DNA of 58,786 bases from a virus (Duplodnaviria > Caudoviricetes), in IMG/VR virus record IMGVR_UViG_3300033067_002133, positions 1 to 58,786 of that record. One strand, given 5' to 3'. A program made the translations under genes and the position numbers. Below, piece by piece: positions 8,320-54,664 of the stretch (within the stretch, counting starts at the first letter, position 1; every line of letters begins with the position of its first letter). Under the pieces are notes generated by a model, which saw nothing but the letters and a program-made list of their open reading frames with translations, searched no databases and was not told the DNA's origin.

Positions 8320-8688
8320 TTACGTTACCGTCACTTTCCAATCGGTTAGTTTCAATGCCTCTGCCAGTTTTTCGAGAACCGTTCTCGATGTCAACTTTTC
8401 TGGGAACGGATCGGTCGTTTTAACTCCTGCCTGATGCAGAGACTCGATCAAGCTTTCGGTTAGCTTTCGCTCCCCGTATGCAGTGCCAACGCCTCGCCGG
8501 CGAATGCCTCGATAGTCGATCTCCAGCATCGACGTTCGTTTAGTTCCGCTTTTGTTGGCCTTCTCAATAATCTGAGCGGCCGGTTTTAGTTCACCGCCAT
8601 CATAATAAAGCAATGTGGTGATCTTCATGCCAAAGTAGGCAATACCAACCGGCCGCTCTGACCAGCAATCTTCAATTTCAAGCTTCAA
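8320..8688 (-). CDS. hypothetical protein
   Basis: fills the gap between coupled genes; GGAG RBS, TTG start. Confidence 0.6.
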   Translation of the reverse strand: MKLEIEDCWSERPVGIAYFGMKITTLLYYDGGELKPAAQIIEKANKSGTKRTSMLEIDYRGIRRRGVGTAYGERKLTESLIESLHQAGVKTTDPFPEKLTSRTVLEKLAEALKLTDWKVTVT

Positions 8689-9082
8689 CCGTACTCCAGT
8701 TCAAAACATTGTTTGTGGTTTTCGCCTCGTCAACCTTCTCCTCGGTTTGCGTGATATCGAATACAGTGCCGATAATAAAACCGGTCCCTGCTTGCTCCTC
8801 GCCTTCCTTCTTCTTCCGGCTGATCGGAACCCAGATACCAAGCCCTTTTTCGCCTTTTCGCACCACACGACCGGCTTTCATCCACTGCTGGAATCCACCA
8901 ACTACTGTTGCACCTGGCCGCTGCCGAATCACAAAGCAAGAATTGAATGGGCTAAGTGGTTTTTGGTCGATCGTCATAATCGCGCCGCAATTGGCTACAA
9001 TCTCGTGCCGCTGTTCCTGACTCATCGCACTGATCTCTTTCGCCAATGCTTGCAATTGCTCGCGTCTTTCGTTCGTTTTCAT
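8678..9082 (-). CDS. ArdC N-terminal-like ssDNA-binding domain protein (start moved to ATG 9082)
   Basis: SPFN..QRPGATVVGGFQQW..GRVVRKGEKG..IWVP..VFDITQT. Confidence 0.8.
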   Translation of the reverse strand: MKTNERREQLQALAKEISAMSQEQRHEIVANCGAIMTIDQKPLSPFNSCFVIRQRPGATVVGGFQQWMKAGRVVRKGEKGLGIWVPISRKKKEGEEQAGTGFIIGTVFDITQTEEKVDEAKTTNNVLNWSTVEA

Positions 9083-9249
9083 CGGTTCGCTCCCTTTTGT
9101 TGGTTTAGATAAAAATTGTGGCGTGAACATATTGAACTAAGCTCAATCAACTGCATTCCGTATTTGTTCGCAATTGCCTGGTATGCTTGGGTCGATACCT
9201 TGAATTGCTTCCATAGTCGGTATGCTTTTTTTAAGTCGGTCGGGCTCAT
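9079..9249 (-). CDS. 56-aa hypothetical protein (below ORF-track cutoff)
   Basis: AGGAG RBS, MSPTDLKKAYRLWKQ..., ATGA overlap with the ArdC-like gene. Confidence 0.6.
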   Translation of the reverse strand: MSPTDLKKAYRLWKQFKVSTQAYQAIANKYGMQLIELSSICSRHNFYLNQQKGANR

Positions 9250-9344: not shown

Positions 9345-12329
9345 TTACGCTTTTTCTTGCTCGATATCGATCATTGCGTCGTGGACATCGCCTTTTAGGT
9401 CTGGGCGATTATCGTTGATGTATTTGATCATTAACCGCTGATGTATTGGCTGTGTGTTTGACAGAACGCGATATACGTCTGATCGTCTAAGCTTGCTGAT
9501 ATCATCTGCCGCTATCTTTACCATCGCGTCTGGATTGAAATCGTGTATCGATACCGATTTGCTTTCAGGTTTTCGTACCAACTCATCTGGAACGCCTGGC
9601 TCATCCAAGAATTGCGTTTGTCCTGCAAGTCCGCTGGTGCTGAATAGTGCCGATTGCGTTTCCTTGGGTTGCGGTGCTGTCGGTTTCTTGACGGCTTGCG
9701 GTTTAACGTCATTGCCAAATAAGTCTTTGCTCATCGCTTTCTCCTGTGGTGGTTGTTGCGACTCACTTATTGGCTTTTCCTTTGACTTGTCAACACCTTT
9801 CAGCCGCTCCATTACCATGTTAACGCGACGGCTTTGGGTTTCCGCCATTGGTCTAATCTTGTCGATCGACCGCTTGATGATCATGTTGATATTCTGCCGC
9901 GACTCGCCCATTTCCTTGGCTACGTCCGTTTGCTTCTGTCCTTTGATGTAAACCTTCTCAAGAATAGTTCTCTCCCGCTCTGGAAGTTCTGATAAAAACG
10001 ATTTAACCGAATTTCTCAAGTCCACTTGCGTCGGTTCATCCGGCTCTCGCATTTCGGCTGCGCGGTGATCGGCCACGTTGGCAATCATGTCGCCTTCGAC
10101 ATTGGAGCCTAGCGCTGGCTGATTCAAGCTCACAGTCGATCGATCGTCGCGTTTTTTTCTCGTCTCGTGACGATACATATTAATTCGTGTCGTATTGGCA
10201 ATCGCAGCAATCCACGTTGAAAACTTAAAGCCTTTTGCTGGATCAAATCGATGCCTGTTTTGATGCGCTGCAAGTAGCACCTCTTGAGTGAAGTCGTCAA
10301 GATAATCCTCGCCTTTCTTGCCGAGCCCTTTCTTGACTGCCCATTTTCGAATACCGTTATGAATCTTCGGATCGTTGATTAGCTCATCGAAGTTTGCAAC
10401 CGCTTGCGGTTTTTCTTCGGGCTCAACAATACTGACGGCGGCGCTCTCTGGTTTTTCTTGCGCGGCTGGTACTTCCGGTTCATCGCTAGGCTCGTCAATC
10501 TTTACCGCTGCCGCCTGCTCCTCTTGAGCGCGTTTCTGTTTGAATAATTCTTGAGCCCTGGCTCGTGCTGGATGAATCGGCTTGTCGGCCACCATGCTGT
10601 CTCGCATTTGGATCATGCGAAACATATCTTTTTTGGTTAAGTTCTCGCCTCTCGACAAGTCCCAAATGTTTTTGTTTTCAGCGATCGACTGCTGAACGAT
10701 TCGCTTGATTTTGTCGTCAACGCTTTCGGGCTGCGATTTCGGCGTCTCGCTGACTGGGGAATCTTCTGGCTCTTTGATCTCGACCGCCTCGCTGTCCATC
10801 GGCAATCGCATAACCATCTGACCGCCGCGATCGACGGCTTCCACCTTCGGTCCTTGACCAACCGGCTTTTTGCTTTCGTTATCATCGAATAGCGATTTTG
10901 TCTTTTGCTTAGCTACGAATGCCGCCATTTCATCGTAGGCTGATGTTTTCTTGGTCGGGCGTTCAACCATTTGCAGTGGATTAGTCGGCTTGATCGGGCC
11001 ATCGTTTCCATGCTCTAACGTTTCTGGAGGATCTCCATGCGGATCAAACAAAACGCCTTGATTCGGATCGAAGTCTTTGAGCAAGTGCCAGCGAGGCTTT
11101 CCTGCTGTCGTGTCCTTCAAAATGTACGTGTGGCCGTCAACCTTTTTCAACGAACCGATCTTCCAAACCTTAGCATTGAACATCTCGCGGCCCATCGCAT
11201 TAGTCGTTGGTCCTAATGGCATGGCGTATCGCAGTGGATTTCCTTTTGAAAACGGAACGCTATCGTCTCGCTTTTCTGGCTTCCAGTTTTCATCTTCAGA
11301 ATCCTTTCCGTCGCCGTCATAAAACGCTTGGGATCGATCGTAGTAATGAGTTCCCATCAACTTGTCGGTGTCCAGATACTTGTCAACCGCCTTGAAAATT
11401 TCTGGGTCGTGAGGCTGGATTTCTGGCTTCACTCCCATTCGAATTGCATCGGCAAATACTTCAAGCGGATCAGTTTGAGCGCCTGAAACATTCTTTTGCA
11501 TGTGACTCATAAGCACTGGTAAATGATGCTCGTACTGACTCATGTGCGTATCGAATCCGCGAATAGAATCGACATCGCTGTTTTCCAGCGCTTTGGTTAC
11601 TTTATTCTTGAACGATCGTCGATTCTCACCGCTAATGTCTTTGACTGCGGCATTCCAATCACGAATACCGTCATTTCGTCGACCGGCTTCTTCCAGTGCT
11701 GCTTGCTTGATCAATGGAAACACTTCAGGGTGATCGCCATACCGCGCCACGATATTTGTATCTAACGCTTTTCTGCGGTCGTATGTAACCGGCGTGTAGT
11801 TTTTCTTCCCTGTATCGTTGTAAACCGGGTGATAGTGTTCTCTCTCAAAATCATTAGGCGCATGGATATCTCTCGCTTGCGGCTCCCAACCTTCTGGAAC
11901 ATGAGACAGATCGACATTGTAGTCTCCATGCTCGTTTGGACTGATGACTGCGAACGACTTTTTATTCAAATCGAGATGGTCCGCATGTTCTGGAAAGTTC
12001 GAATCGTGAAAGTAGTGATAATCCGCTTTCGGGTTTCCAAAATGCGTGGCGTGATTGTTGAATAGATGCATGTGATCGCCCGTTCGCACCATCACCGCAT
12101 CGTACTGTGCAAGATCAGGCGAAAATGAGGAATCACCAACATGCGAATCGTACAGATTTTTAGCGATAGACTTGCCATTGTCTCCCATGTCCGGCATTTT
12201 TGGTTTTGGCGCATTAATGTTGAATTCATCTGGATCGAATGAATCATCTTCTTGCGTGGCCAACGAACCAAAAAAATCGTCGTCTTCTGGGGTGTCGACG
12301 CCATCTTTGTTGTATCGCATTTTGAGCAT
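9345..12329 (-). CDS. ~994-aa multidomain protein with embedded sigma-70 family domain (regions 2 and 4, ~9850-10370)
   Basis: DDFTQEVLL..RFDPAKGFKFSTWIAAIA; VSLNQP; LSELPERERTILEKVYIKGQKQTDVAKEMGESRQNINMIIKRSIDKIR; AAGGAG RBS at the portal stop. Confidence 0.85.
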   Translation of the reverse strand: MLKMRYNKDGVDTPEDDDFFGSLATQEDDSFDPDEFNINAPKPKMPDMGDNGKSIAKNLYDSHVGDSSFSPDLAQYDAVMVRTGDHMHLFNNHATHFGNPKADYHYFHDSNFPEHADHLDLNKKSFAVISPNEHGDYNVDLSHVPEGWEPQARDIHAPNDFEREHYHPVYNDTGKKNYTPVTYDRRKALDTNIVARYGDHPEVFPLIKQAALEEAGRRNDGIRDWNAAVKDISGENRRSFKNKVTKALENSDVDSIRGFDTHMSQYEHHLPVLMSHMQKNVSGAQTDPLEVFADAIRMGVKPEIQPHDPEIFKAVDKYLDTDKLMGTHYYDRSQAFYDGDGKDSEDENWKPEKRDDSVPFSKGNPLRYAMPLGPTTNAMGREMFNAKVWKIGSLKKVDGHTYILKDTTAGKPRWHLLKDFDPNQGVLFDPHGDPPETLEHGNDGPIKPTNPLQMVERPTKKTSAYDEMAAFVAKQKTKSLFDDNESKKPVGQGPKVEAVDRGGQMVMRLPMDSEAVEIKEPEDSPVSETPKSQPESVDDKIKRIVQQSIAENKNIWDLSRGENLTKKDMFRMIQMRDSMVADKPIHPARARAQELFKQKRAQEEQAAAVKIDEPSDEPEVPAAQEKPESAAVSIVEPEEKPQAVANFDELINDPKIHNGIRKWAVKKGLGKKGEDYLDDFTQEVLLAAHQNRHRFDPAKGFKFSTWIAAIANTTRINMYRHETRKKRDDRSTVSLNQPALGSNVEGDMIANVADHRAAEMREPDEPTQVDLRNSVKSFLSELPERERTILEKVYIKGQKQTDVAKEMGESRQNINMIIKRSIDKIRPMAETQSRRVNMVMERLKGVDKSKEKPISESQQPPQEKAMSKDLFGNDVKPQAVKKPTAPQPKETQSALFSTSGLAGQTQFLDEPGVPDELVRKPESKSVSIHDFNPDAMVKIAADDISKLRRSDVYRVLSNTQPIHQRLMIKYINDNRPDLKGDVHDAMIDIEQEKA

Positions 12330-12331
12330 GA

Positions 12332-15300
12332 CTATCTCCTTCTTCGGTGGTGCATATGTGACGACATCACCCACATTACCGCCAACAATCCTGCCAGGAT
12401 CAGCAAATTTCGTTTTCCGCCCACTGCGTCCGCTAAACTGTCGTACCATCCTTTGGTTGACTTTTGTTCGCTCAAATGGTTTAACGACGCAACCAGCGAC
12501 TCTTGATACATTTTCATGGCCTTCTTGTCACCACGAACCAAGTGTTCCTTCAATACGCTCATGGTGTACGGAGGCTTAAACCCTCGCTTCATTGCGGTTT
12601 GCAGAATATGCTGCGCGGCTTTCGTCGACTGAACATATCGACTATGCGCTGGATTTGGTTGCCAGCCAAGATTGATCGCTGCGGCGCTTAGCTTATCCAA
12701 TCGCTCAGTTTGCTGATGCAGGAACTTGCCGGCCGCAATTGTTTGCTCCTCTTTGCTCGCTCCTCGCATGTTGAGCCCTAAATGATGGGCTGTCTGCCGA
12801 ATGAAATTGCCGACTGCATTTTGATTGTGCAAGTTTCTTTCATTAAATCCAAACGCTACGGCAACTTTGTTGATCTTCCGCATTGTGCCTGGCGGAATCT
12901 TCATTGTGGTTGCCTTGTCTTCCGGTTGCTGACCTGGGACACCTGTTGGATTTTTCTGATGCCAATCTACTGCCTCTTGAAACAGCTTTGGATCGACCTT
13001 TGATCCGAAATCGTCGTCGTTGACAAGATCTGGAATCTGGCGATTTTCCCAAGCAGTTATACCGGTAGTCTTATCGTGGATCTTCTCCCAATCACCGATT
13101 TTAGTTCCAACCGGCATTGATCGAACATGCAAGATGTCTGGCTTGCTTCCTGTTGGCGATTGCTGCGGTGCGGCTGGCTGTGTCGGTTTCGCCTGCTGCT
13201 CTTGCGTCAGCATTGGTTCTGGCGACTGAGGGGACTGGGAATCTGGCGCTGGTGCGTCAACTGATTCGTCTTGTGGAACTTCCGTCAACGCTTGTTCATC
13301 TTGCGGCACAACCGTTTTTGCTTGCTCTGCATCGAGCGACTGTTTCTGCGATACCGCTTCCAATCGTTTCTGCCAATCACCAACATTGCCGCCAAGATGC
13401 TTAATGACCTGGCCTGCGTCTGCCGGAATTTGACTGCCTTCGATCCAGAATTTTCCGTGTTGCTTTTTAACGCCATCGATCTCTGCTCCATCAGGCAGTG
13501 CGTCAAGCTTTCCTTTGACATCTGACATGCGAAGCGATTCCTGCGCAACTGGCTGTTGCTGAATGTCGACTGGTGCGGCATCACCAGCTTTGTGCGGGAA
13601 CATTTGGTCGACCACTTGTTGGCCTTTTTCGCTCGTTAGCCAATCAGTCATTTCGCCTGGATGTGTGAATTGGGATTTCATCGCGTGTGCAAGTTCATCG
13701 GCCTTCATAACCGAACCCGCGTCTCGATGACCACGCTCCCATGCCAATTGAATCAAGCTACTGGAGCCCGGCGCCATCTTTTTCTCTTGCGGTGGATTAC
13801 CAAGCTGCATTTGCAACAAAACCGTTTCTGCTTGTTTTTTGTTTAGCTTTGTGGCTGCATTAGCTTGCTTGCTCCAAATCGCTTTGTGTTCGTCAATCTT
13901 CTTTGCTTTCTCTTGCTCAACTCGTGCCGCCTCTGCGGCCGCTTCTTGCTGCTTTCGTTGCTCCATTGCCTGCGAAACATTAGCGGCATGCTTTTCGATA
14001 GTTTGGGGATCATACCCTTCGTCCGAAAAACTGAAATCGCCGCCTTTGCCGAACAGCGTATTTCCATTTACCTTCATACCGTTTTGATCGGACTTCCACG
14101 TATCGTTCCCTAAATGGGTGTACGAGCCCTTCGTCGGTGACTGAGCCACCAAATTGGTAGGCAGCACTGAACGCTGCTCTTTACTTGCGATGTGATTCTT
14201 GAAATCAAACTTCCGCGCTGGATCGTTGTTTGCTTCCAGATATGCCTGCCGCTCCTCGTTTGACGCTTCTTCAAACTCTTTTCGTGGAATCAATTGGCCG
14301 TACTCAAACTGTTTTCCTGCCAGCGTGACTCCGCCAAATGGAGCATAGCCACGATGAACCATGTCGTTGTGCAACTCTCGACGTTTGAGCATCGGCCTGT
14401 GGCCATCATCGACCTGTTTTTCGTCTTGTGGCTCAACTGGCTTCGGCTGATCAACTTGAGGCTGCTGTGGCTCAACTGGCGCGGGGTCTTGTTTTGGCTC
14501 TGCCTGTGGCTGCGATTGAATATTTTCATCCGAACTAACGCTAGATTCACCAGATTGCTTTTGAACTGGCGCTGCCGATTTCCTGGCTGCTGCCCATGCT
14601 TGCATATTCGGTGCTTCGACTGAAGCCTCGGCCGGCTTCACCTTCTTCAGCTTTGGCATTTTCACCTGGCGAACCTCGCCATGCTGCATGCCCTTCATTT
14701 GCTCCTTAACGCTATCGTGAACCGCCTTGGCGTGATGCAATAGTTCTTCTTCGGGGAGCCCGTGTTCGGCCACCAGCTTGTCTCGCAACTTGGCAACCTG
14801 GATCGCATGCTGGCCTTGGCTTTTCTGGTCAGTTTTGCCACTGGCCAAACGAGTCATCTTTGCGGCACTGGCATAATCGTGAAGATCCCGGTGAAGCGGG
14901 TTTTCAAACTGAACCGTCCCATGATTCATGCCGGCGATGTAATTCCTGGTCAGGTTGGACGGTTTTTGGCCTGCTGGAGCCCCTGGCTTCAATTCTGGCG
15001 CTGGTTTGCTATCGTCAGCCTTCCATCGGCCACCCTGTAGCGTTTCCTGGCCTCCTGAGTCGCTAATGCGGCTTGAGCCCGGTTGTGGGTCTATTCCGCC
15101 CTTAACCTCGGCCTCGGCGCCCGGTTCAGGCAAATCGATCTTTGGCGGTTTGGCTGGCAAGCCGATTTTCGATTCACTCGGCTCTTGGACGTACCGTTCA
15201 GGCTGCTTGCCCTTTCGATACCGCGGATGGCCTTCGAATTGATCGTACTGCTCGTCGATTCCATGCGGATCGTGATCTGGGTGATTCGGATCGGTTTCTG

Positions 15301-16924
15301 GATCGCCGCCTCCCGGCCCTTCTGGTCCTGAATCGTTGGGCGGTCCACCGCTCGGCCCACCGTCTGGTCCCTGGCCTGGCAATTGCGTTCCTGGCGGCAT
15401 CTGATTTCCGCCCTGCTGCATCACCTGCTCCTGCTGTTTCAATTGAAGCTTTTGAGCGACGATCGCAGGATTGAACAGCTTCAGATCTCCGCGGCCTGGG
15501 GCATTCAAGCCTAACCTAGCCAGAACTTCCGCTCCGTTCAATTCGGCGCCCATGTCCCAAGCAGCTTTCATCGCCATTAACTCCTGCTGAGGAATCGTCG
15601 ATTCAGGATTCAGCCGAAAGTAAAACGGGACGTTGCGATACTGAGGATAATTCCAATCACGCAGAACATCGACCTTCTCCCTGGTGACAGTTTCCTCCAG
15701 CGCCGCCGAGTCACTCCTGACGATCTGCTTCAAGCTGTCGTGCTGCAAATCGGCAACACCGCTGTTGCCAATACCACCACCTGCCGCCTTGGTTGACAGT
15801 GTTTGACCAAGAATAAACCTGGTGATCATATCACCAAAGTAATTGTCGATTAGATTTTGCAATGCCTGCATGCCGGCCGTGTTCATCGGAATCTGCTCTA
15901 CCGTTGGCATCTGCGGCATCGCCGGATCGTAAGGCGCAAGAATCACATTAGTCTTGCCCTGCTGCGCGGCAACCTTCTCGATCTCTTGCTTGTAAGTGTA
16001 ATTGCCTGTTGGGTAGTAATAGATCGTGAACCCCATCGCTGTCCGCTCGACGATTTCGACAAGCTGTGCGAGGGTTTCTTGCTTTTGATACCAAGTCCAG
16101 TACAAAAAGTTTCGTATGCCAACACCTTGGACGTAACCGGCCGACACCGGATCTTCGTACTCGCCATCACGAATCATATGCTTATGAACGATGATTCGAC
16201 GACGCTCCCACCCATCAAAAAACACCGCGGGACCATCGGGCGTTAAGTCTGCTTTTAAGTTGTGATACAATCCTCCTTCATTGTTTCGATTCAAATGAGA
16301 CATGCTAACTTTGATACCAACCCCATCTGGATCATAGCTGCCTGAATTATCATCAAATCGAAACACAAGCTTATCGCCATTAATTGGCATCCACTTGTTG
16401 ATATGCCACTGCGGCTTTCCGGCTCGATCGTGACTTCTCGCTGCACTATGCAAAATCGCATACTTCCCATACCAAATTGCCTCGCTCAAAACGCGAAGGT
16501 ACTCGGTGAATCGATATGTCTTCGAAACCAGCCTGGTCAAATGCGCTGCCGCCTGAAGTAGTTGCTTGTCATGCTTATCTTCGGGCTCAATACTCCAATT
16601 CAACAACGACACCATTCGCTGCCGCGCTTGCAGCGGTCCAGAGATTACCGGATCGTTAAGCATCGCTGCCGCATTTTGAACATTATGCAAAATAGCCTGA
16701 TCGGCATTCCTGTAAACCTTGGCGAGACTACTGACGAGTCCGCCAAACGTGTAGATGTGAGGGATAACCGTCTTTCCAAAATTAGACGGCATCGAAGTTC
16801 CACTCGTTGGATCTACGTTTAACTGTTGTCGATACTTGATTGGCGCAAGCTGACCTGGTAGGTAGTTGGTTCCTCCCGCGCGAAAACCACCTGGCATATC
16901 GACTACAAATTGATGGTCACTCAT
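12332..16924 (-). CDS. Mu gp29-like (DUF935) portal protein with ~1000-aa C-terminal extension
   Basis: EAIWYG, G.GI...LYW.W, ILGQTLST, LEETVT..V..L.D.N in the first ~490 aa; located after terL. Confidence 0.85.
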   Translation of the reverse strand: MSDHQFVVDMPGGFRAGGTNYLPGQLAPIKYRQQLNVDPTSGTSMPSNFGKTVIPHIYTFGGLVSSLAKVYRNADQAILHNVQNAAAMLNDPVISGPLQARQRMVSLLNWSIEPEDKHDKQLLQAAAHLTRLVSKTYRFTEYLRVLSEAIWYGKYAILHSAARSHDRAGKPQWHINKWMPINGDKLVFRFDDNSGSYDPDGVGIKVSMSHLNRNNEGGLYHNLKADLTPDGPAVFFDGWERRRIIVHKHMIRDGEYEDPVSAGYVQGVGIRNFLYWTWYQKQETLAQLVEIVERTAMGFTIYYYPTGNYTYKQEIEKVAAQQGKTNVILAPYDPAMPQMPTVEQIPMNTAGMQALQNLIDNYFGDMITRFILGQTLSTKAAGGGIGNSGVADLQHDSLKQIVRSDSAALEETVTREKVDVLRDWNYPQYRNVPFYFRLNPESTIPQQELMAMKAAWDMGAELNGAEVLARLGLNAPGRGDLKLFNPAIVAQKLQLKQQEQVMQQGGNQMPPGTQLPGQGPDGGPSGGPPNDSGPEGPGGGDPETDPNHPDHDPHGIDEQYDQFEGHPRYRKGKQPERYVQEPSESKIGLPAKPPKIDLPEPGAEAEVKGGIDPQPGSSRISDSGGQETLQGGRWKADDSKPAPELKPGAPAGQKPSNLTRNYIAGMNHGTVQFENPLHRDLHDYASAAKMTRLASGKTDQKSQGQHAIQVAKLRDKLVAEHGLPEEELLHHAKAVHDSVKEQMKGMQHGEVRQVKMPKLKKVKPAEASVEAPNMQAWAAARKSAAPVQKQSGESSVSSDENIQSQPQAEPKQDPAPVEPQQPQVDQPKPVEPQDEKQVDDGHRPMLKRRELHNDMVHRGYAPFGGVTLAGKQFEYGQLIPRKEFEEASNEERQAYLEANNDPARKFDFKNHIASKEQRSVLPTNLVAQSPTKGSYTHLGNDTWKSDQNGMKVNGNTLFGKGGDFSFSDEGYDPQTIEKHAANVSQAMEQRKQQEAAAEAARVEQEKAKKIDEHKAIWSKQANAATKLNKKQAETVLLQMQLGNPPQEKKMAPGSSSLIQLAWERGHRDAGSVMKADELAHAMKSQFTHPGEMTDWLTSEKGQQVVDQMFPHKAGDAAPVDIQQQPVAQESLRMSDVKGKLDALPDGAEIDGVKKQHGKFWIEGSQIPADAGQVIKHLGGNVGDWQKRLEAVSQKQSLDAEQAKTVVPQDEQALTEVPQDESVDAPAPDSQSPQSPEPMLTQEQQAKPTQPAAPQQSPTGSKPDILHVRSMPVGTKIGDWEKIHDKTTGITAWENRQIPDLVNDDDFGSKVDPKLFQEAVDWHQKNPTGVPGQQPEDKATTMKIPPGTMRKINKVAVAFGFNERNLHNQNAVGNFIRQTAHHLGLNMRGASKEEQTIAAGKFLHQQTERLDKLSAAAINLGWQPNPAHSRYVQSTKAAQHILQTAMKRGFKPPYTMSVLKEHLVRGDKKAMKMYQESLVASLNHLSEQKSTKGWYDSLADAVGGKRNLLILAGLLAVMWVMSSHMHHRRRR

Positions 16925-17910
16925 TGAAGACCTCTAGGGTTGTTGTACCCTGGTAAATTTGAAACTAAGAATGGCCGTCGCCCTTGACCGATAGACGGAA
17001 CGGAACGAACGCGAAAGCCTAAACTAGATGACTTGCGCGGCGTGTAAGCTGCAAACGATCCATTGCCAAGCGATAGGAATGTTGGAGTCACCAATTGATA
17101 CGTGTACTGATGCTCCCAAAGACTTCCGCAAACTCGCAATCGCTGCCAAACGAATTCGCCCTTACTCATTGCTTTTCGCATTTCATTGAACACGGACTGC
17201 GGCACTGGTTTTGCGCGACTTCCGTAGGCGTAAAGCGGGCCTGGAATATGCGCCTTGTGTCCCATCATGTACGGTTTGCCGTTACATTGATTTATCTGTC
17301 CGGTGTAATGCGTTGGAGTGGTCTGAGCCTTGTACTGCACATAAAGAATTCCGCTTTCGGCATCATAATTGAAACCGTAAACGTTGCTGCTCTCTGGAGT
17401 CTGAATCAAATTTCCGACAACATCGCCGGCTGATCCATCCTCAACTCCCATCGCTTTCAGCAAGCTATCTCGCTGGATCTTTTGTCGCCGACTTCCGATA
17501 CCGCCGACTGTGGGGACCGTCGCCACTTCAAACGTGGGAGTTTTTAATCCGAACTCTTGCGGCCCCAATCGAATCGGACCTTCTGGTGGGATCTCGTTTC
17601 CAAATCGAATCATCTCAAGCTGATCTGGAGTCGATAGCTCGTTTTGGTTTGGAACTTGCACGATCGTTTCGTACTCGTACAAACTAGGATCTGGCTCCCC
17701 TTTACTGGCGAATCCAGATTGCTCCATAAGTTCGGCGCTACGGCGGATATCATCTGGGGTTGCGGCGCCACCGGTACGGAAGATATCGACAACTGCACCA
17801 AACAATCGGCCGACTTGGCCGTGTGTCCGAGACAGCGCTTCAGAAAACGAACCGCCAAATGCGGATTTCATTAGACCGTAAACGCGGCTTAGTAGTCCTT
17901 TGTCCTTCAT
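16921..17910 (-). CDS. KTSC-domain protein
   Basis: ESSNVYGFNYD...LYVQY...YAY..VPQSVF..M..AMSKGEFV. Confidence 0.75.
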   Translation of the reverse strand: MKDKGLLSRVYGLMKSAFGGSFSEALSRTHGQVGRLFGAVVDIFRTGGAATPDDIRRSAELMEQSGFASKGEPDPSLYEYETIVQVPNQNELSTPDQLEMIRFGNEIPPEGPIRLGPQEFGLKTPTFEVATVPTVGGIGSRRQKIQRDSLLKAMGVEDGSAGDVVGNLIQTPESSNVYGFNYDAESGILYVQYKAQTTPTHYTGQINQCNGKPYMMGHKAHIPGPLYAYGSRAKPVPQSVFNEMRKAMSKGEFVWQRLRVCGSLWEHQYTYQLVTPTFLSLGNGSFAAYTPRKSSSLGFRVRSVPSIGQGRRPFLVSNLPGYNNPRGLQ

Positions 17911-17979: not shown

Positions 17980-19551
17980 CTATCTGGAAAATTTTACACC
18001 TTTTCCCATTTCGCCCTTGATGATCAAAGGCGTCATTTTCATGCCCTCTCCGGTCCTATCGGTATGAATCATGTATCGTAGAGCATCAACGCTATCATCA
18101 TCAAATTTGAGTGGAACAGGCCTTGCCGATCGCGGGTTGAGCCCTCTTTGGCTACTTTTCTCCCATCGGTAAGTTGACATTTGCCTGGCAAGCTTTGGAC
18201 ATCTATTTCGGTCGATAATGATTCCTGGGGTGTCTGTTCTTGGGTCTTTTCGCAAAACTTTTCGGACACTTTCAATCCCCTCATAAACCGCATTGTTCGC
18301 AGCCGTCATGTAAATTCCAAACGATGCAAACTCACGAAACAAGTCCGGCCGACTTGGATCTCCATAAGTCTGCAAGTGGTATCCGTCCTGCTCCCAGGTC
18401 TTACGCCTTTTGATTTCTGCCGCGTGATCTTTCCATAGATAGGTTTGGCTGTTTGACCAGTATTCGTCAAAAATGTACCAAATACCAGTAGCATCCTTGA
18501 ACCCCCAAAGACAAACGAATGGATGTTCCTCGCTGGAGCCCCAGTCGATCGACCGTTTGAAGAAAACGTAATCAGGAATCACAATCGAGTCGACCAAATG
18601 GACCTTCGGTGAAAATGTTTTGTAAACAACACCTTCGTATGTTGCAAAAACACCTTTTTTCCGAGTCTCCATCATCTCGTCGCTGACGCCGGCAAAAAAC
18701 GTGTCGTACCACGCCTTATCGACATGGCCTGCGTTCATGGCCGATTCAGTATTCAGGTGATAGAACGACCAATTCCTAAACCGCTCGTCTCCAACGGTCC
18801 AGTGTTGATAGATCTCCTGCAACCGGATCGCCTTCTCTGGATCGATAGGCGTTTGCTCGCAGATGATACTCCCTGGGAATGCACATTCACGAACACCGCG
18901 AAGAACTTCCTCAAACACATCGTAAGGAAACTGTTCTGTGAACCAAGCGCCGCCGATCGCCGCGGCCTGCATTAGCTCGCGTCCCTGCTCGTAACTCTTG
19001 AATTCGATAATCCAGTTTTTGTCTGTGCCTGGCTTTTGCGGGTGAAGTGGAACGGAGAATGGCCATTGGCGATTTGTGTTGTACCAACTGATCCGGTCTG
19101 TATCGACCCATTCTGCTGGAAGTATGTTTTTCAGCTTTTGAAACCATGCTGTCGAACAAACTTGCTCGTAAGTATTGGAGATGATCCAAAAAGGCGTGTC
19201 TTTGAATGGCGGTGGCGTCGTTCGCAGAAACTCCGCTACTTTTTGTGCCGCGACAAACGTTTTTCCAGATCCATTGCCTCCTATGGCAATTGAAACCAGC
19301 TTGTTTGATTCATAGAAGCCGGTTTGTTCATCGCCTTGACTGATCTTGTCCGGCCGCGGCTCGAAGCTGTCAAAAGGGTGATTGAACAATCGATCGACAT
19401 AAGCGTTGATCGTTTTGTCATTTAGCTTTTCAAGATCCTTGAGAATTCGAGGGTTGTCGGCAATATCTTGGCGCAACTGCTTTCTGTCGCGCCAAGTCTT
19501 AGCACCGACTAATCGATTGAGCCATTGTTTTACCGCGCTAACTTTCTTCAT
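17980..19551 (-). CDS. terL: terminase large subunit
   Basis: Walker A GGNGSGKT; FKSYEQG; nuclease IDWG, YGDPS, DDSVDALRY. Confidence 0.92.
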   Translation of the reverse strand: MKKVSAVKQWLNRLVGAKTWRDRKQLRQDIADNPRILKDLEKLNDKTINAYVDRLFNHPFDSFEPRPDKISQGDEQTGFYESNKLVSIAIGGNGSGKTFVAAQKVAEFLRTTPPPFKDTPFWIISNTYEQVCSTAWFQKLKNILPAEWVDTDRISWYNTNRQWPFSVPLHPQKPGTDKNWIIEFKSYEQGRELMQAAAIGGAWFTEQFPYDVFEEVLRGVRECAFPGSIICEQTPIDPEKAIRLQEIYQHWTVGDERFRNWSFYHLNTESAMNAGHVDKAWYDTFFAGVSDEMMETRKKGVFATYEGVVYKTFSPKVHLVDSIVIPDYVFFKRSIDWGSSEEHPFVCLWGFKDATGIWYIFDEYWSNSQTYLWKDHAAEIKRRKTWEQDGYHLQTYGDPSRPDLFREFASFGIYMTAANNAVYEGIESVRKVLRKDPRTDTPGIIIDRNRCPKLARQMSTYRWEKSSQRGLNPRSARPVPLKFDDDSVDALRYMIHTDRTGEGMKMTPLIIKGEMGKGVKFSR

Positions 19552-20143
19552 TCGTGATTCGCAATTTGTTTCGCTTTAGTGTTTCTTGCAAACCAGAATA
19601 AAGCGCCTCCGCGCCTTGTGCGGCAGCGTTGATGGTGATGTTATTCACCGTCTTTTGTTGCTTCTTGGTTTTGTATTTCGGGTTGTTAGCCTTCAATACA
19701 GTCGCCAACAAGTAATCGCTGCCTTCCAAGGCGCGTTGGATCGCTATTTCTTCCAAAAAAGCAAAGCCAATACGCATTGCTGCATTACTGGCCTTGAGAA
19801 ACTTCGTGCTTGACTGTCGCCATTTGTAGACTTTTTTTACATCTACGCCGGCAATCGATGCAGCCTTGGTTATCGATGGGAAATGCTGCAATACTTTAAT
19901 GACTGCTTTCTGCTCCTGAGTTAAAGCGAAAAACTCCGCTTTCCTCTGGTCAGACTTGTGCATCTTGCTACGGTAATTGCGTCCAAAAGAATTCACGATC
20001 TCGACATCGGATTGTAAGCTCTCCGATTCGGACTCGATAAACGGTTGTGTCGATTCCTCCTGGTCCGAATTCAAGTTCGGAGATGGGATTTCCTCCGGCT
20101 GATTCGTATCCTTCGATGATTCCGACTTGTCGTTCAAATCCAT
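19538..20143 (-). CDS. terS: terminase small subunit
   Basis: HTH SITKAASIAGVDVKKVYKW; LEEIAIQRA..GSDYLL..LKA..P.Y; overlaps terL start. Confidence 0.75.
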   Translation of the reverse strand: MDLNDKSESSKDTNQPEEIPSPNLNSDQEESTQPFIESESESLQSDVEIVNSFGRNYRSKMHKSDQRKAEFFALTQEQKAVIKVLQHFPSITKAASIAGVDVKKVYKWRQSSTKFLKASNAAMRIGFAFLEEIAIQRALEGSDYLLATVLKANNPKYKTKKQQKTVNNITINAAAQGAEALYSGLQETLKRNKLRITNEES

Positions 20144-30755: not shown

Positions 30756-31352
30756 TTATCGGCGAAATAATCGCCTACCATATGACTGGTTTGTCGGACA
30801 CCGGCCACCAGGACACGACTGGTTGATCAACGACTGCCTAGTTACAGTTCTTGACCGGACAATCTCCTGATTTCCTGACACGACCACCGATCGTATTCTG
30901 CTAGAACCGTCCCACGCCCAACCTTCATGCAGATTGTCATGGATTGCTCGAAGTTCCGATAACGCTCGGCCATCAAGTTGTTCGACTGGGATCTGGTGAT
31001 TGCTTCCAAGCAAGTGAGATCGCAATGAACCCACCGTCCACGAAACACTATTGATCGTCCATTCAGACAAAGCGCGACGGACAATTTGGATCCGCGCTGG
31101 TTTTTTAACCTCTACCGTCCGAACAACAACGGAAGGCCTTTCCGTGGCCGTAGACTTGCGCGGGAGTACATTCGCAAGCTGGCTTTCATAGCGTACTGCG
31201 GGCGTTGGATCATTGCTGAGCCCGAATGTTTCGGCGCTTGAAACAACAGACGCCTCGGCGACCCCCGCATCTCCCAGACCGAACATATCGTCTGCGAAAC
31301 AAGCGGCCGGACACAACAAGACGATTAAAATCAAAGTACTTAACGTTTTCAT
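30756..31352 (-). CDS. secreted protein
   Basis: signal peptide MKTLSTLILIVLLCPAACFA; C-terminal CPGGRCP..RRLFRR. Confidence 0.7.
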   Translation of the reverse strand: MKTLSTLILIVLLCPAACFADDMFGLGDAGVAEASVVSSAETFGLSNDPTPAVRYESQLANVLPRKSTATERPSVVVRTVEVKKPARIQIVRRALSEWTINSVSWTVGSLRSHLLGSNHQIPVEQLDGRALSELRAIHDNLHEGWAWDGSSRIRSVVVSGNQEIVRSRTVTRQSLINQSCPGGRCPTNQSYGRRLFRR

Positions 31353-32257
31353 AGCCCAAAAGTTTCCTCCGAGATATCACCTGGGTCCACTGCTCCAGAT
31401 TGACTTTGTTCAATGGAACGAATTTCCGAATCCATCTGGTCACGATACTTCCTGAGCGATTCCACGTATCGAGACTTCCACTTCAGATCGCTTGGATCAC
31501 TCGGCGGATCGACTGGTGGGTCACTCGGCTTCACATCCTCGGCCCAGATCGGCCACATTTCACTTGCGGCGCGAGCGGTCCAGTAACAGTCTTTGACAGT
31601 CGGATCGCTCAAGCCGTCCGTATCGTAATTAACGTCTCCACCTGGCAGTTCGATAAACTCCCAGTCTTTAGGACGCGGGAATCCTTTGACGATTCGGCCT
31701 CGCATTTGGTCGTAGATCGTGTTCGTCAACTGGCCACCGCCATACCAGCGATTTCCTTGACGAATCGACCACGTTAGCAAAGCTTTCATCAAGTGGTCAG
31801 AGTCACCCCAAACACCGGAGCCAGATTGACCGCCGATCGCATTGGGGAGCCACAACAAGACGCCATTGTTGATGGTTTGAAATTGTGCAATGTCGGTCCC
31901 TGCATGCTTGACGCATTTGGGGTATCCCTTCGTGTACATGCTCTCATTCTTTGCCGGCAAACCTTTCGTAAGATAAACCGGTTGAACTTGAGTTAGCCCT
32001 GGAACATAAAGCAGCGCCCAGTCGGCGCCGATTTCGTTCCGGTTGTACATAACCTCGACAATGTTTCCAGTGAACCGTTTGTTTCCGAGCGACTCAGCCT
32101 CGACAACAATGTCTCGATCTGGATCAGTCCCGGCAACGTGGCCATTAGTCATCACCAACGAACCGTCTTTCCACTTTCCACACACTGAACCTGAACCACA
32201 ACTGTTTTGATTCAGTATTCGACAAACAGCCCTTGTTGCCGGTCCTGTTGAACTCAT
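31349..32257 (-). CDS. trypsin-like serine protease
   Basis: triad motifs TNGHV, ADWAL, GGQSGSGV. Confidence 0.85.
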   Translation of the reverse strand: MSSTGPATRAVCRILNQNSCGSGSVCGKWKDGSLVMTNGHVAGTDPDRDIVVEAESLGNKRFTGNIVEVMYNRNEIGADWALLYVPGLTQVQPVYLTKGLPAKNESMYTKGYPKCVKHAGTDIAQFQTINNGVLLWLPNAIGGQSGSGVWGDSDHLMKALLTWSIRQGNRWYGGGQLTNTIYDQMRGRIVKGFPRPKDWEFIELPGGDVNYDTDGLSDPTVKDCYWTARAASEMWPIWAEDVKPSDPPVDPPSDPSDLKWKSRYVESLRKYRDQMDSEIRSIEQSQSGAVDPGDISEETFGL

Positions 32258-53095: not shown

Positions 53096-54139
53096 TTACG
53101 CGCTGATTGGATCAGTGAACACGAATCCCGAAATCGGCGCGGTTGCGTGGATTCCGTAATCGTCAACAGTGCGGCCGAGATGTCGTCGATTGTCGATGTC
53201 GTGCTTCGATTCGACAGTCATTTCTTCCTTGAAGAACATTGTCCAAGTGCTGAACGATGGACTTCCTTCGATGCCTTCCAAACCGCCTGGCCGGGCCATC
53301 ATCACAACGGCGGTGCTTGGCATGACAAAGCTCTTGGCGGCGGTCGCGCCTTTTCGGCTCGTGACCTTGACTGCGTTTTCGACCACCAGTTTGTAGTCGT
53401 ACAGCCGATCAGGCATGCCAAAGTTGTTGGCCGGACCCAAGTTTCCAAGGATCGTCTTTTCGGCGGCGGGCGATTGCTTGATGTGATCGCGGATCTCTTG
53501 AGTAACCGAGATTCGCTGTGCAACCCGCGGTCCCATGACGACGATCAAGTCTTCAGGCTGAACGGCGCCCAATGTTGCAATCATAATTTGCTCGGCGGCA
53601 TAATCAAGAGATCGCTTGATGTCCATCCGAACCGTGGTCGAAAGATTCCAACGTCCGGTAACACCAGAAATCGACTCGACAGCGCTGTAGTGGCCAGTCG
53701 GGTAGTTGGAAGTGTTGATCATTCGCGTAACTGCTCGGAGCGTTCGGGCAGTCATTGCTCGCTGAGCATTGATTCGAGCAAATTGAGCAAGCAGCTTCCA
53801 ATCAGCGTTTTCATCGGCTTCTTGCGGCAATCGAAACGCCGGAGCAAACCGACGAGTTTCCACTGCCTTGAATTCGAAGCCTTCCTCCGAACCCTCGCCG
53901 CTGGGGGCGTCAGCGCCGTATGGCCATGCAATGTCTTCAGCGTCCGAACCGAGAATTCGACCGGCCTGTTCGACCGTCATCTCGATGTACAAGCCACGAG
54001 GCTTTTTGATCGGGACGTATTGCATGTACTCTGGCAGCTTAAATTTTTTGGGATTGCGGCTGAAGTCAACCACCAAATTATTTGTTGCCTCCGTACTCGG
54101 CACAAATGTATTTGTACCGGAAGGGTAAACTTTGGGCAT
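53096..54139 (-). CDS. major capsid protein (start moved to ATG 54139)
   Basis: ~347 aa after scaffold and cement genes; AGGAG RBS; C-terminal GFVFTD. Confidence 0.75.
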   Translation of the reverse strand: MPKVYPSGTNTFVPSTEATNNLVVDFSRNPKKFKLPEYMQYVPIKKPRGLYIEMTVEQAGRILGSDAEDIAWPYGADAPSGEGSEEGFEFKAVETRRFAPAFRLPQEADENADWKLLAQFARINAQRAMTARTLRAVTRMINTSNYPTGHYSAVESISGVTGRWNLSTTVRMDIKRSLDYAAEQIMIATLGAVQPEDLIVVMGPRVAQRISVTQEIRDHIKQSPAAEKTILGNLGPANNFGMPDRLYDYKLVVENAVKVTSRKGATAAKSFVMPSTAVVMMARPGGLEGIEGSPSFSTWTMFFKEEMTVESKHDIDNRRHLGRTVDDYGIHATAPISGFVFTDPISA

Positions 54140-54199
54140 AGCCAAGCTCCTGAAACGTCAAATTAAAAACAACTCTGGAAACAACAAAAAAGTCAGTGA

Positions 54200-54604
54200 T
54201 TAAGCCTTGGTGTAAACCGGGCCGGTAATCAAACCGCGAACCAATTCGCCTTCGAGTGCAGATTCGAATGGCAAGAAAAAGCCATAGTCATCCGATGTGA
54301 TCGAGACGCCTTTACCGTCTGCGTCTGGTTTCAGGTAGACGCCGCGAGTGGCGCCACCAGATCCGACTTCGAGCAGCGATTCACTGCCAAACGATTTGTA
54401 CTGGAATTGGTATCCGTCAGATGCAGCAAGAACGCTGCTGTTTTGGGGGATCGGCGCTTCCTGACTGCCAGCTTGCGAAATACCAACAACATCTTTGTCG
54501 CCGGAATTCGATTCAACCAGAACGTGATTTGCGGCGCCGACCGACACGAAACGATTTGTTCGGATGTCACCACCGGCAGTTGCGGATAAAACGTGTGCAG
54601 GCAT
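54200..54604 (-). CDS. capsid cement protein (DUF2190-like)
   Basis: AGGDI..NRFV; VVGIS; LKPDADGKGV; ALEGELV. Confidence 0.65.
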   Translation of the reverse strand: MPAHVLSATAGGDIRTNRFVSVGAANHVLVESNSGDKDVVGISQAGSQEAPIPQNSSVLAASDGYQFQYKSFGSESLLEVGSGGATRGVYLKPDADGKGVSITSDDYGFFLPFESALEGELVRGLITGPVYTKA

Positions 54605-54664
54605 TGTATTGCTCTCTGTTGACAAAAACTACAAAAAACGAACTACCGAATATTGATTCAGCGA

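Follow-up and report, generated by a model that had tools for sequence, protein, structure and literature searches.

A Mu-type phage portal protein with a long mosaic extension that ends in a rare conserved module tipped by a hydrophobic helix

Introduction

Phage portal proteins that run on into further domains were described by Iyer et al. 2017 (Iyer, Burroughs, Anand, de Souza, and Aravind; PMC5512222), who reported portals fused to PBECR, 2H, and InPase domains (e.g., BcepF1.124) and read these polyvalent proteins as packaged in the virion and injected. Here, we analyze a portal gene of this kind in IMG/VR virus record IMGVR_UViG_3300033067_002133, a linear metagenomic contig of 58,786 bases that was analyzed over its whole length (the window) and for which CheckV estimates 83% completeness. 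The gene lies at 12332-16924 (-) and forms a single uninterrupted frame of 1,530 codons. An initial annotation of the sequence had reported that its Mu-type portal continues into an extension of about 1,000 residues, and we confirm this observation, with an extension of ~1,040 residues. The extension is a mosaic, mostly disordered "cargo," and its last ~270 residues are a rare module, the new element of this portal fusion.

Like the polyvalent portals of Iyer et al. 2017, the protein passes in one frame from the portal into further modules, is encoded in a block of head genes beside terminase, and has a mosaic, fast-changing architecture; its close relatives, though not the query itself, carry InPase, LPD1, LPD3, ART-PolyVal, SNF2, and DarA_C domains. 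Unlike those portals, it is without catalogued domains, and its conserved terminal module is tipped by a hydrophobic helix. In the main text of that study (PMC5512222), the words "transmembrane" and "sigma" have 0 occurrences each, and the end module may be among the domains LPD1-40 of its supplementary domain files. Among the matches listed in a full-text literature search, judged on titles and the starts of abstracts, there was no such helix-tipped portal-polyvalent protein. As portal fusions are already described, a cargo-carrying portal is not a new principle; the novelty lies in an end module that is conserved and tipped by a helix, and in its association with cargo bearing sigma regions.

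In function, the end of the extension would most closely resemble the C-terminus of T7 gp16, with which it shares no detectable homology. That protein carries putative transmembrane helices toward its C-terminus, and T7 infectivity depends on five positively charged residues at the C-terminal end (PMC8954989). The T7 internal core amounts to ~1.5 MDa (PMC8954989), compared with 1.37 MDa computed here for 12 copies of the extension, which has a mass of 114.4 kDa. Like the gp16-type ejection proteins of T7 and P22, the extension is predicted to be a large head-internal protein located at the portal, with a C-terminal hydrophobic helix and a positively charged end. Unlike T7 gp16, it belongs to the portal polypeptide itself, ends with one short apolar helix in place of two transmembrane regions, and carries no peptidoglycan hydrolase domain.

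Two further systems bear on the fate of such an extension. The portal of phage Mu, gp29, is likewise of the PF06074 family, and its last 124 residues are absent from virions, a loss ascribed to protease I (PMC11915804); this is a precedent for freeing a portal-borne extension. However, 124 residues are lost in Mu, whereas 1,040 are at stake here, and the record shows neither a PF10123 protease I nor a PF04233 MuF protein. In phage phi24B, the 2,811-residue polyvalent protein gp47 was detected in virions by mass spectrometry while being invisible in cryo-EM, and it was proposed as an ejection protein forming a trans-periplasmic conduit (bioRxiv 10.64898/2026.04.10.717836). It differs from the protein studied here in being a separate gene product with LPD and MuF-C domains, not fused to a portal, and no terminal hydrophobic helix is reported for it in the parts of the preprint on which we draw. 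Both are very large multi-module proteins.

Portal-cargo fusions have been catalogued, but to our knowledge nobody has shown whether the cargo is cleaved from the portal, whether it exits the head, or what its destination is. The clade described here offers a clean handle on this question, as its rare, conserved end module, which bears a membrane-like helix, is found joined to the portal or on a gene just downstream, and sigma modules occur in the same polypeptides.

Results and Discussion

The portal and its extension form one continuous gene

The portal domain proper, of Mu/DUF935 type, comprises residues 1-490 (15455..16924, -). Pfam Portal_Mu (PF06074, DUF935) matched residues 86-473 (E value 5.6e-34; 118.4 bits against a cut-off of 23.9; profile positions 5-336 of 336), and PHROG 113, "portal protein," covers residues 85-492 of the 1,530-residue open reading frame (ORF), which agrees with the portal ending near residue 490 as first annotated. 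The region of that annotation, 12332-15460, corresponds to the extension plus the stop codon. The solved portal 8rka matched residues 261-483 (E value 1.7e-4), a sequence match by which the protein would be expected to form a dodecameric ring at one capsid vertex. On the minus strand, the gene order is terS (19538-20143), terL (17980-19551), a 329-residue ORF (16921-17910), and the portal, forming a packaging/head block in which the portal ATG overlaps the stop codon of the 329-residue ORF (ATGA). The lack of a visible separate MuF/gp30 gene was also borne out, as a six-frame search of the whole 58,786-base, 83%-complete record with PF04233 gave 0 matches at E ≤ 1. A tblastn search of INPHARED phage records with the whole 1,530-residue protein gave no match at 1e-5, indicating that no close relative in culture is represented there. 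Three in-frame ATGs, at residues 452, 502, and 746, are preceded by a Shine-Dalgarno-like word; a nested product from these internal starts was considered and set aside as too weak for a claim.

We then compared the gene with Logan contigs of four sequencing runs from two studies (X4 and X5 from one; X1 and X2 from another, freshwater, 2019). A contig of run X4 covers 12000-17200 with zero differences, and X4 may be the source of the record; pieces from X5, of the same study as X4, are also identical to the record. Pieces from X1 and X2 are 95-99% identical to it over much of 13327-15037 and elsewhere, differing by substitutions only, with no indels and no joints. Among the 40 of 59 substitutions that were listed, 36 lie in the ORF, comprising 24 silent changes, 12 replacements, and 0 stops; within the extension (residues 636-1188), the listed substitutions divide into 21 silent and 12 replacing. 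This excess of silent changes indicates that the frame of the ORF is under purifying selection. An open frame of 4.6 kb is not a chance product, and one of the related fusion proteins (P0111) is encoded identically on two IMG/VR contigs (L002 and L009). The record is a metagenomic contig, and X4, the sole run spanning the whole gene, may be its source; nonetheless, an artifact by mis-assembly, frameshift, or a missed stop, with a true portal of ~500 residues, is very improbable given that no indel or joint appeared in contigs of four runs and two studies, that in-frame substitutions are mostly silent, and that the portal-to-module architecture is also present in 10 other proteins of other, independent assemblies. 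We consider it very likely that the gene encodes a real portal-cargo fusion of the polyvalent kind.

Long portals are ordinary in this clade

An IMG/VR scan with a portal alignment confirmed 113 relatives, from which 80 loci were kept. Portal ORF lengths were measured from the first start codon after a stop, and values for the 11 loci cut by a contig end are lower bounds. By this measure, 27 of the 80 portal ORFs have at least 1,000 residues, 24 have 600-999, and 29 have fewer than 600. A portal of 1,530 residues is thus ordinary in the clade, for which the general expectation that Mu-type portals are about 500 residues long, voiced in the initial annotation, fails. A search among proteins of 841-2678 residues returned 18 other portals (964-2447 residues; 36-62% identical over the portal part), and a search among shorter proteins returned 89 further portals of 104-818 residues, either plain or with InPase or 2H. 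Catalogued domains are carried by many of the long relatives, namely InPase (PF18823), LPD1, LPD3, ART-PolyVal, SNF2 helicase, DarA_C, and sigma-70 region 2 with GerE. The protein studied here itself combines a number of unrelated modules and is encoded in a head-gene context, as is characteristic of polyvalent proteins.

The extension is a mosaic of small modules and linkers

Over residues 492-1530 there were 0 Pfam families even at E ≤ 1, the catalogued polyvalent domains (MPTase, ArdC-N, ART, InPase, and LPDs) included, and no NCBIfam model matched. Translation and composition showed all of the elements first annotated here: a Q/G/P linker, the motif HPRYRKGKQPERYV, and small modules separated by P/Q-rich linkers. 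The first linker is a Q/G/P-rich low-complexity segment without a Pfam match at residues 491-565 (15230..15454, -), with 72% P/Q/G/S/E/K/D/N in 50-residue windows (72-74% across residues 481-630). It is followed by the basic motif HPRYRKGKQPERYV, read from the translation at residues 566-579 (15188..15229, -), and by a module that we call s2 at residues 640-775 (14600..15007, -). This module is predicted to be helical at low confidence (predicted local distance difference test, pLDDT, <50), and phmmer matched it to the portal ORF of L005 (E value 3.3e-14), a sigma-bearing ORF of L055 (7.8e-13), and P0114 (6.5e-9). Beyond a P/Q-rich linker at residues 781-835 (14420..14584, -; 78% P/Q/G/S/E/K/D/N) lies a mini-domain with an AP.GG-hairpin motif at residues 860-904 (14213..14347, -), modeled as a beta-hairpin and two helices with pLDDT ~90; phmmer found its motif again in more than a dozen proteins. 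A helical region at residues 979-1109 (13598..13990, -) is predicted to contain a ~68-residue helix and a small bundle (pLDDT 55-87). Its fold search gave generic coiled-coil matches only (Z ≤ 5.3), and residues 1044-1114 are common to P0111 by phmmer. The last P/Q-rich linker occupies residues 1205-1265 (13130..13312, -; 62-64% P/Q/G/S/E/K/D/N).

The middle of the extension was modeled with low confidence overall. AlphaFold gave residues 640-1260 a mean pLDDT of 49 from a shallow, noisy alignment, with confident islands only at ~860-899, 980-1019, and 1050-1109, and there was no usable ESM Atlas match for residues 640-1205. When residues 491-1530 were compared by BLASTP with the 18 long relatives, matches were found in five, only at ~843-903 and in the last ~270 residues. 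When seven segments were searched by phmmer against the collected proteins and locus ORFs, at least four conserved modules after the portal recurred in relatives in other combinations or orders.

Two small motifs were also noted. In many portals of the subclade, the very N-terminus is formed by the hairpin motif, A-P-x-G-G-h-x-h-x-G-K-x-Y/F-x-x-G-x-x-h-P. It is degenerate at residues 10-27 of the portal studied here (16846-16897, -), has a second copy inside the cargo at residues 860-880, and also occurs near the N-terminus of stand-alone end-module proteins such as P0112. The strict pattern had 5 matches in ~1.0 million residues of non-portal six-frame ORFs and, among 73 portal ORFs from the wider viral set, was N-terminal in only 4; the motif may be a docking element. 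A second small motif, ending G-(R/H/K)-W-(H/K), lies at residues 616-634 of the extension (15032-15079, -), and a variant ending GKPRWH lies in the sigma-bearing protein of the next gene at about 11038-11139 (-); both variants recur in P0002, P0003, and P0114.

The end module is rare and occurs both fused to portals and alone

The soluble part of the end module, at residues 1260-1505 (12410..13147, -), was delimited with AlphaFold and alignments as a small beta domain, a short linker, and a helical domain. A phmmer search with residues 1260-1530 against 1.84 billion representatives gave 22 matches at E ≤ 1e-3 including the query, 8 of them at E ≤ 1e-10. Ten of the 21 others carry a portal domain (P0002, P0003, P0005, P0111, P0114, P0115, P0118, P0122, P0125, and P0127), and another ten, of 281-759 residues, are without one; among the latter, P0121 begins with portal C-terminal sequence and looks like a fragment. 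A match in a 4,336-residue HAMP protein with 11 weak stretches was rejected as probably a coiled-coil false positive. All real matches place the module C-terminally or nearly so, ending 2-124 residues before the last residue of the protein.

The AlphaFold model of the end module, from a 10-row alignment, had a mean pLDDT of 80.2 and a predicted template modeling score of 0.59, and placed a beta domain at ~1275-1324, a helical domain at 1345-1500, and a terminal helix at 1504-1529 (protein numbering). Foldseek returned nothing at E ≤ 1e-3 for this model in PDB or BFVD, and the best VIA Z score was 5.4, to unrelated helical proteins. Against PDB sequences, the module profile had no match below E 0.4, and Pfam gave none. 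The weak helical or coiled-coil fold matches of the predicted end and middle models would establish neither a new nor a known fold.

A search for related loci with the end module as sole query gave nothing, and the portal alignment was used instead. When the end-module profile was then run against all ORFs of the 80 viral loci, matches were found in seven, all on the strand of the portal. The module closes the portal ORF in L002 and L009 (the same 1419-residue protein on two contigs), and a partial copy lies within the 2752-residue portal ORF of L003. It closes a separate downstream ORF in 4 of the 80 loci: a 466-residue ORF, shared by L007 and L074, that lies 0.56 kb past the portal ORF, a 1356-residue ORF starting roughly 0.2 kb after it in L008 (estimated from ORF length), and a 398-residue ORF roughly 3.3 kb after it in L006. 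Among 24 prokaryote genome loci with the same portal clade, the end module was found in none. The occurrence of both fusion and fission indicates that the end module is an independent unit and that it is functionally tied to the portal. As the module is kept even where fusion already guarantees incorporation, its job would extend beyond loading.

The extension terminates in a short hydrophobic helix and a basic tail

Hydrophobicity and a conserved pattern define a terminal helix with a basic tail at residues 1506-1530 (12335..12409, -). As initially annotated, the protein ends with an apolar run and a basic tail: 14 all-apolar residues, LLILAGLLAVMWVM (1507-1520), are followed by SSHMHHRRRR. 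With no polar residue in LLILAGLLAVMWVM, the segment is not an amphipathic surface helix. No other 19-mer of the protein is as hydrophobic as this terminal segment in 20 of 21 family members. The same end pattern is present in 21 of 23 module-bearing proteins (P0007 and P0008 counted in) and consists of Gly-Gly, one or more basic residues, Asn, an apolar core of 13-18 residues with small-xxx-small spacing and a Trp or other aromatic near its end, and then 1-8 Lys/Arg; P0119 and the fragment P0121 are without it.

The Kyte-Doolittle mean over 19 residues is 1.68, just over 1.6. A helix that spans a bilayer would be expected to have about 19-21 residues and a negative insertion energy. On the Hessa scale, 15-residue cores across the family range from -2.4 to +2.1, and all 19-residue windows are positive (+0.5 to +7.9); for the protein studied here, the values are -2.07 over the 15-residue core and +2.78 over 19 residues. 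The stop codon of the portal gene is followed by two bases and then by the ATG of the next gene, which encodes a 994-residue protein. The four terminal Arg codons plus stop (CGAAGAAGGAGATAG; 12332-12346, -) supply a Shine-Dalgarno-like AGGAG six bases before that ATG.

Possible roles of the extension

The C-terminal parts of portals project into the capsid (PMC4992974; bioRxiv 10.64898/2026.04.10.717836). With its C-terminus facing the capsid interior, each portal subunit would carry one copy of the extension into the head without a targeting signal. The initial annotation had proposed that the portal carries cargo into the head, or that the tail anchors assembly or ejection at the membrane, and this proposal stands in part. 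Cargo carried into the head fits, as portals of the same clade are fused to InPase, LPD1, SNF2, sigma-70, and DarA_C domains; an anchor for ejection is plausible, and an anchor for assembly at the membrane is unlikely, as discussed below.

The reading that we favor, at slightly less than an even chance, is that the extension is portal-tethered internal cargo whose free C-terminal end would insert into the host membrane. The narrower proposal that the end module acts at the host membrane during entry is held somewhat more tentatively. By this reading, the 12 portal subunits would bring 12 extensions, ~1.37 MDa in all, into the head. Maturation of the head would separate the extension from the portal by cleavage, much as the C-terminus is lost from the Mu portal, or else the extension would stay tethered via its long linkers. 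At infection, it would exit through the portal/tail channel led by the C-terminal module, whose hydrophobic helix and basic tail would enter the cytoplasmic membrane of the host and help to form or anchor a DNA-entry site, as has been proposed for the C-terminus of T7 gp16. The conservation of the hydrophobic helix and basic tail, and their parallel in the C-terminus of T7 gp16, make an anchor for ejection at the membrane plausible. A marginal hydrophobicity would be expected of a protein that has to stay soluble before insertion, with which the values given above fit without constituting proof.

Several points weigh against this scenario. The prohead protease families PF10123, PF04586, and PF01343 were not found at E ≤ 1 in the record, which is 83% complete, so release by cleavage is unsupported here, and twelve uncut chains together with DNA would not fit the portal channel. 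The end module is without sequence or fold similarity to gp16 or to any solved ejection protein. With an apolar core of 13-18 residues and positive 19-residue insertion energies, the helix is marginal as a membrane span, and with basic residues flanking both of its ends, a topology cannot be firmly argued. The Arg tail shares bases with the ribosome-binding site of the next gene, so its codons are also constrained by that site. Finally, a need for an ejectosome would depend on the tail type, for which no sheath, tube, or tape-measure family was found and ORFs of 335, 571, and 836 residues gave no meaningful match to PDB sequences.

Some of these points would suit an internal structural body, which is improbable yet the best surviving of the alternatives. 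The extensions would then stay in the head, where the twelve terminal helices would bundle together or with the helical domains as an axial core above the portal, and the Arg tails would bind packaged DNA, so that the body would organize the genome end or gate its release, like the P22 barrel or an inner body. For spanning a membrane, the terminal helix is short and marginal, inside an aqueous, DNA-filled head an all-apolar helix has to be buried in some way, the tail is Arg-rich, and the extension has a predicted ~68-residue helix with coiled-coil-like matches; C-terminal portal barrels reaching into the head are also known (PMC4992974). However, 10 of the 21 other module proteins are without a portal domain, so twelve-fold tethering is not required. 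An aromatic-then-basic end is typical of a membrane interface, and the mosaic, poorly conserved middle suits cargo better than a precise structure.

The portal-less proteins could instead indicate a signal for loading or retention, the end module binding the inner capsid wall, the scaffold, or the portal crown only to get cargo into the head or keep it there. The stand-alone proteins P0112, P0113, P0116, P0117, P0123, P0124, and P0126 would need to enter the head, and the end module is their common part. C-terminal loading peptides exist in other HK97-fold shells. Nonetheless, 11 portal fusions (counting the query), for which loading is already guaranteed, retain the module, and a uniformly apolar 14-residue helix would be an odd protein-binding tag, making this explanation quite unlikely.

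A still slightly less likely variant of ejection at the membrane would have the extension never cut. Some of the twelve ~1,000-residue disordered tails, up to ~350 nm when extended, would pass out via the portal and tail before the DNA does and embed their terminal helices in the inner membrane of the host, leaving the capsid covalently tethered to the entry site. A sigma factor (within the tail in P0003, P0111, and P0114; the protein of the next gene here) would recruit host RNA polymerase there, and transcription on the entering DNA end would help to pull the genome in. If true, such a mechanism may reflect adaptation to the planctomycete periplasm, which is wide and invaginated.

Least likely of these roles is an assembly anchor, in which the helix would tether the portal ring to the inner membrane of the producer cell and nucleate procapsid assembly: the terminal hydrophobic helix resembles a tail anchor, and T4 has membrane-associated prohead initiation involving gp20 with gp40, but the portal C-terminus points into the shell, and the capsid would grow around any membrane tether attached there. 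A tail-anchored topology would also place the Arg tail in the periplasm, contrary to the positive-inside rule, and a portal domain is missing from ten of the 21 other module proteins.

If, as we favor, the end module inserts into the host membrane, then a part of the DNA-entry machinery would be fused to the portal, and either maturation cleavage or tethered ejection would be required. This would be one of few mechanistic leads on phage entry into planctomycetes.

Neighboring genes and probable host

The gene that follows the portal (9345..12329, -) encodes a linker-rich, cargo-like protein of 994 residues, in which TIGR02937 and Pfam identified an extracytoplasmic function (ECF) sigma-70 core at residues 655-826. 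TIGR02937 matched with an E value of 2.1e-21 (76.3 bits against a cut-off of 42.9), Pfam with Sigma70_r2 and r4, and the next-best model was a Planctomycetaceae-specific ECF subfamily, below its cut-off. Sigma regions lie inside the portal fusion, between portal and end module, in P0003, P0111, and P0114, and in separate downstream ORFs in L018 and L055. Given that the sigma regions of relatives lie within portal fusions, the 994-residue protein is a candidate virion-delivered sigma factor. The extension itself has no significant similarity to this protein (best E value 0.32). A second conserved end module, with the motif AADDI.KLR..DVYRV, occupies the last ~110 residues of the 994-residue protein (9345-9680, -); it also closes the portal fusion P0004 and is present in large ORFs of L030, L031, and L067.

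The host is probably a planctomycete, judging from the 24 prokaryote genome loci with the portal clade, of which 18 are in Planctomycetota metagenome-assembled genomes, and from the sigma core, which is nearest to the Planctomycetaceae-specific ECF subfamily. Some of these 18 loci are on contigs of 0.1-2.4 Mb, and at such megabase-scale lengths, some of the Planctomycetota loci are likely prophages. Habitat hints point to freshwater, in small shares.

Three further ORFs were noted, besides a 523-residue ORF that lies ahead of the scaffold-like gene (54200-54625, next to a capsid gene at 53096-54145) and had no PDB-sequence or NCBIfam match. Far from the head genes, a 302-residue ORF (31349-32257, -) gave a weak match to a trypsin-like peptidase (26.3 bits against a cut-off of 27.6) and is the only protease-like gene seen in the record. 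Between terL and the portal, the 329-residue ORF (16921-17910, -) is translationally coupled to the portal, and its sole match is a borderline KTSC domain (25.8 bits against 25). Two genes downstream of the portal, a stand-alone 150-residue ORF (8678-9130, -) carries an ArdC-N domain (26.3 bits against a cut-off of 22.6), which is a hallmark domain of polyvalent proteins.

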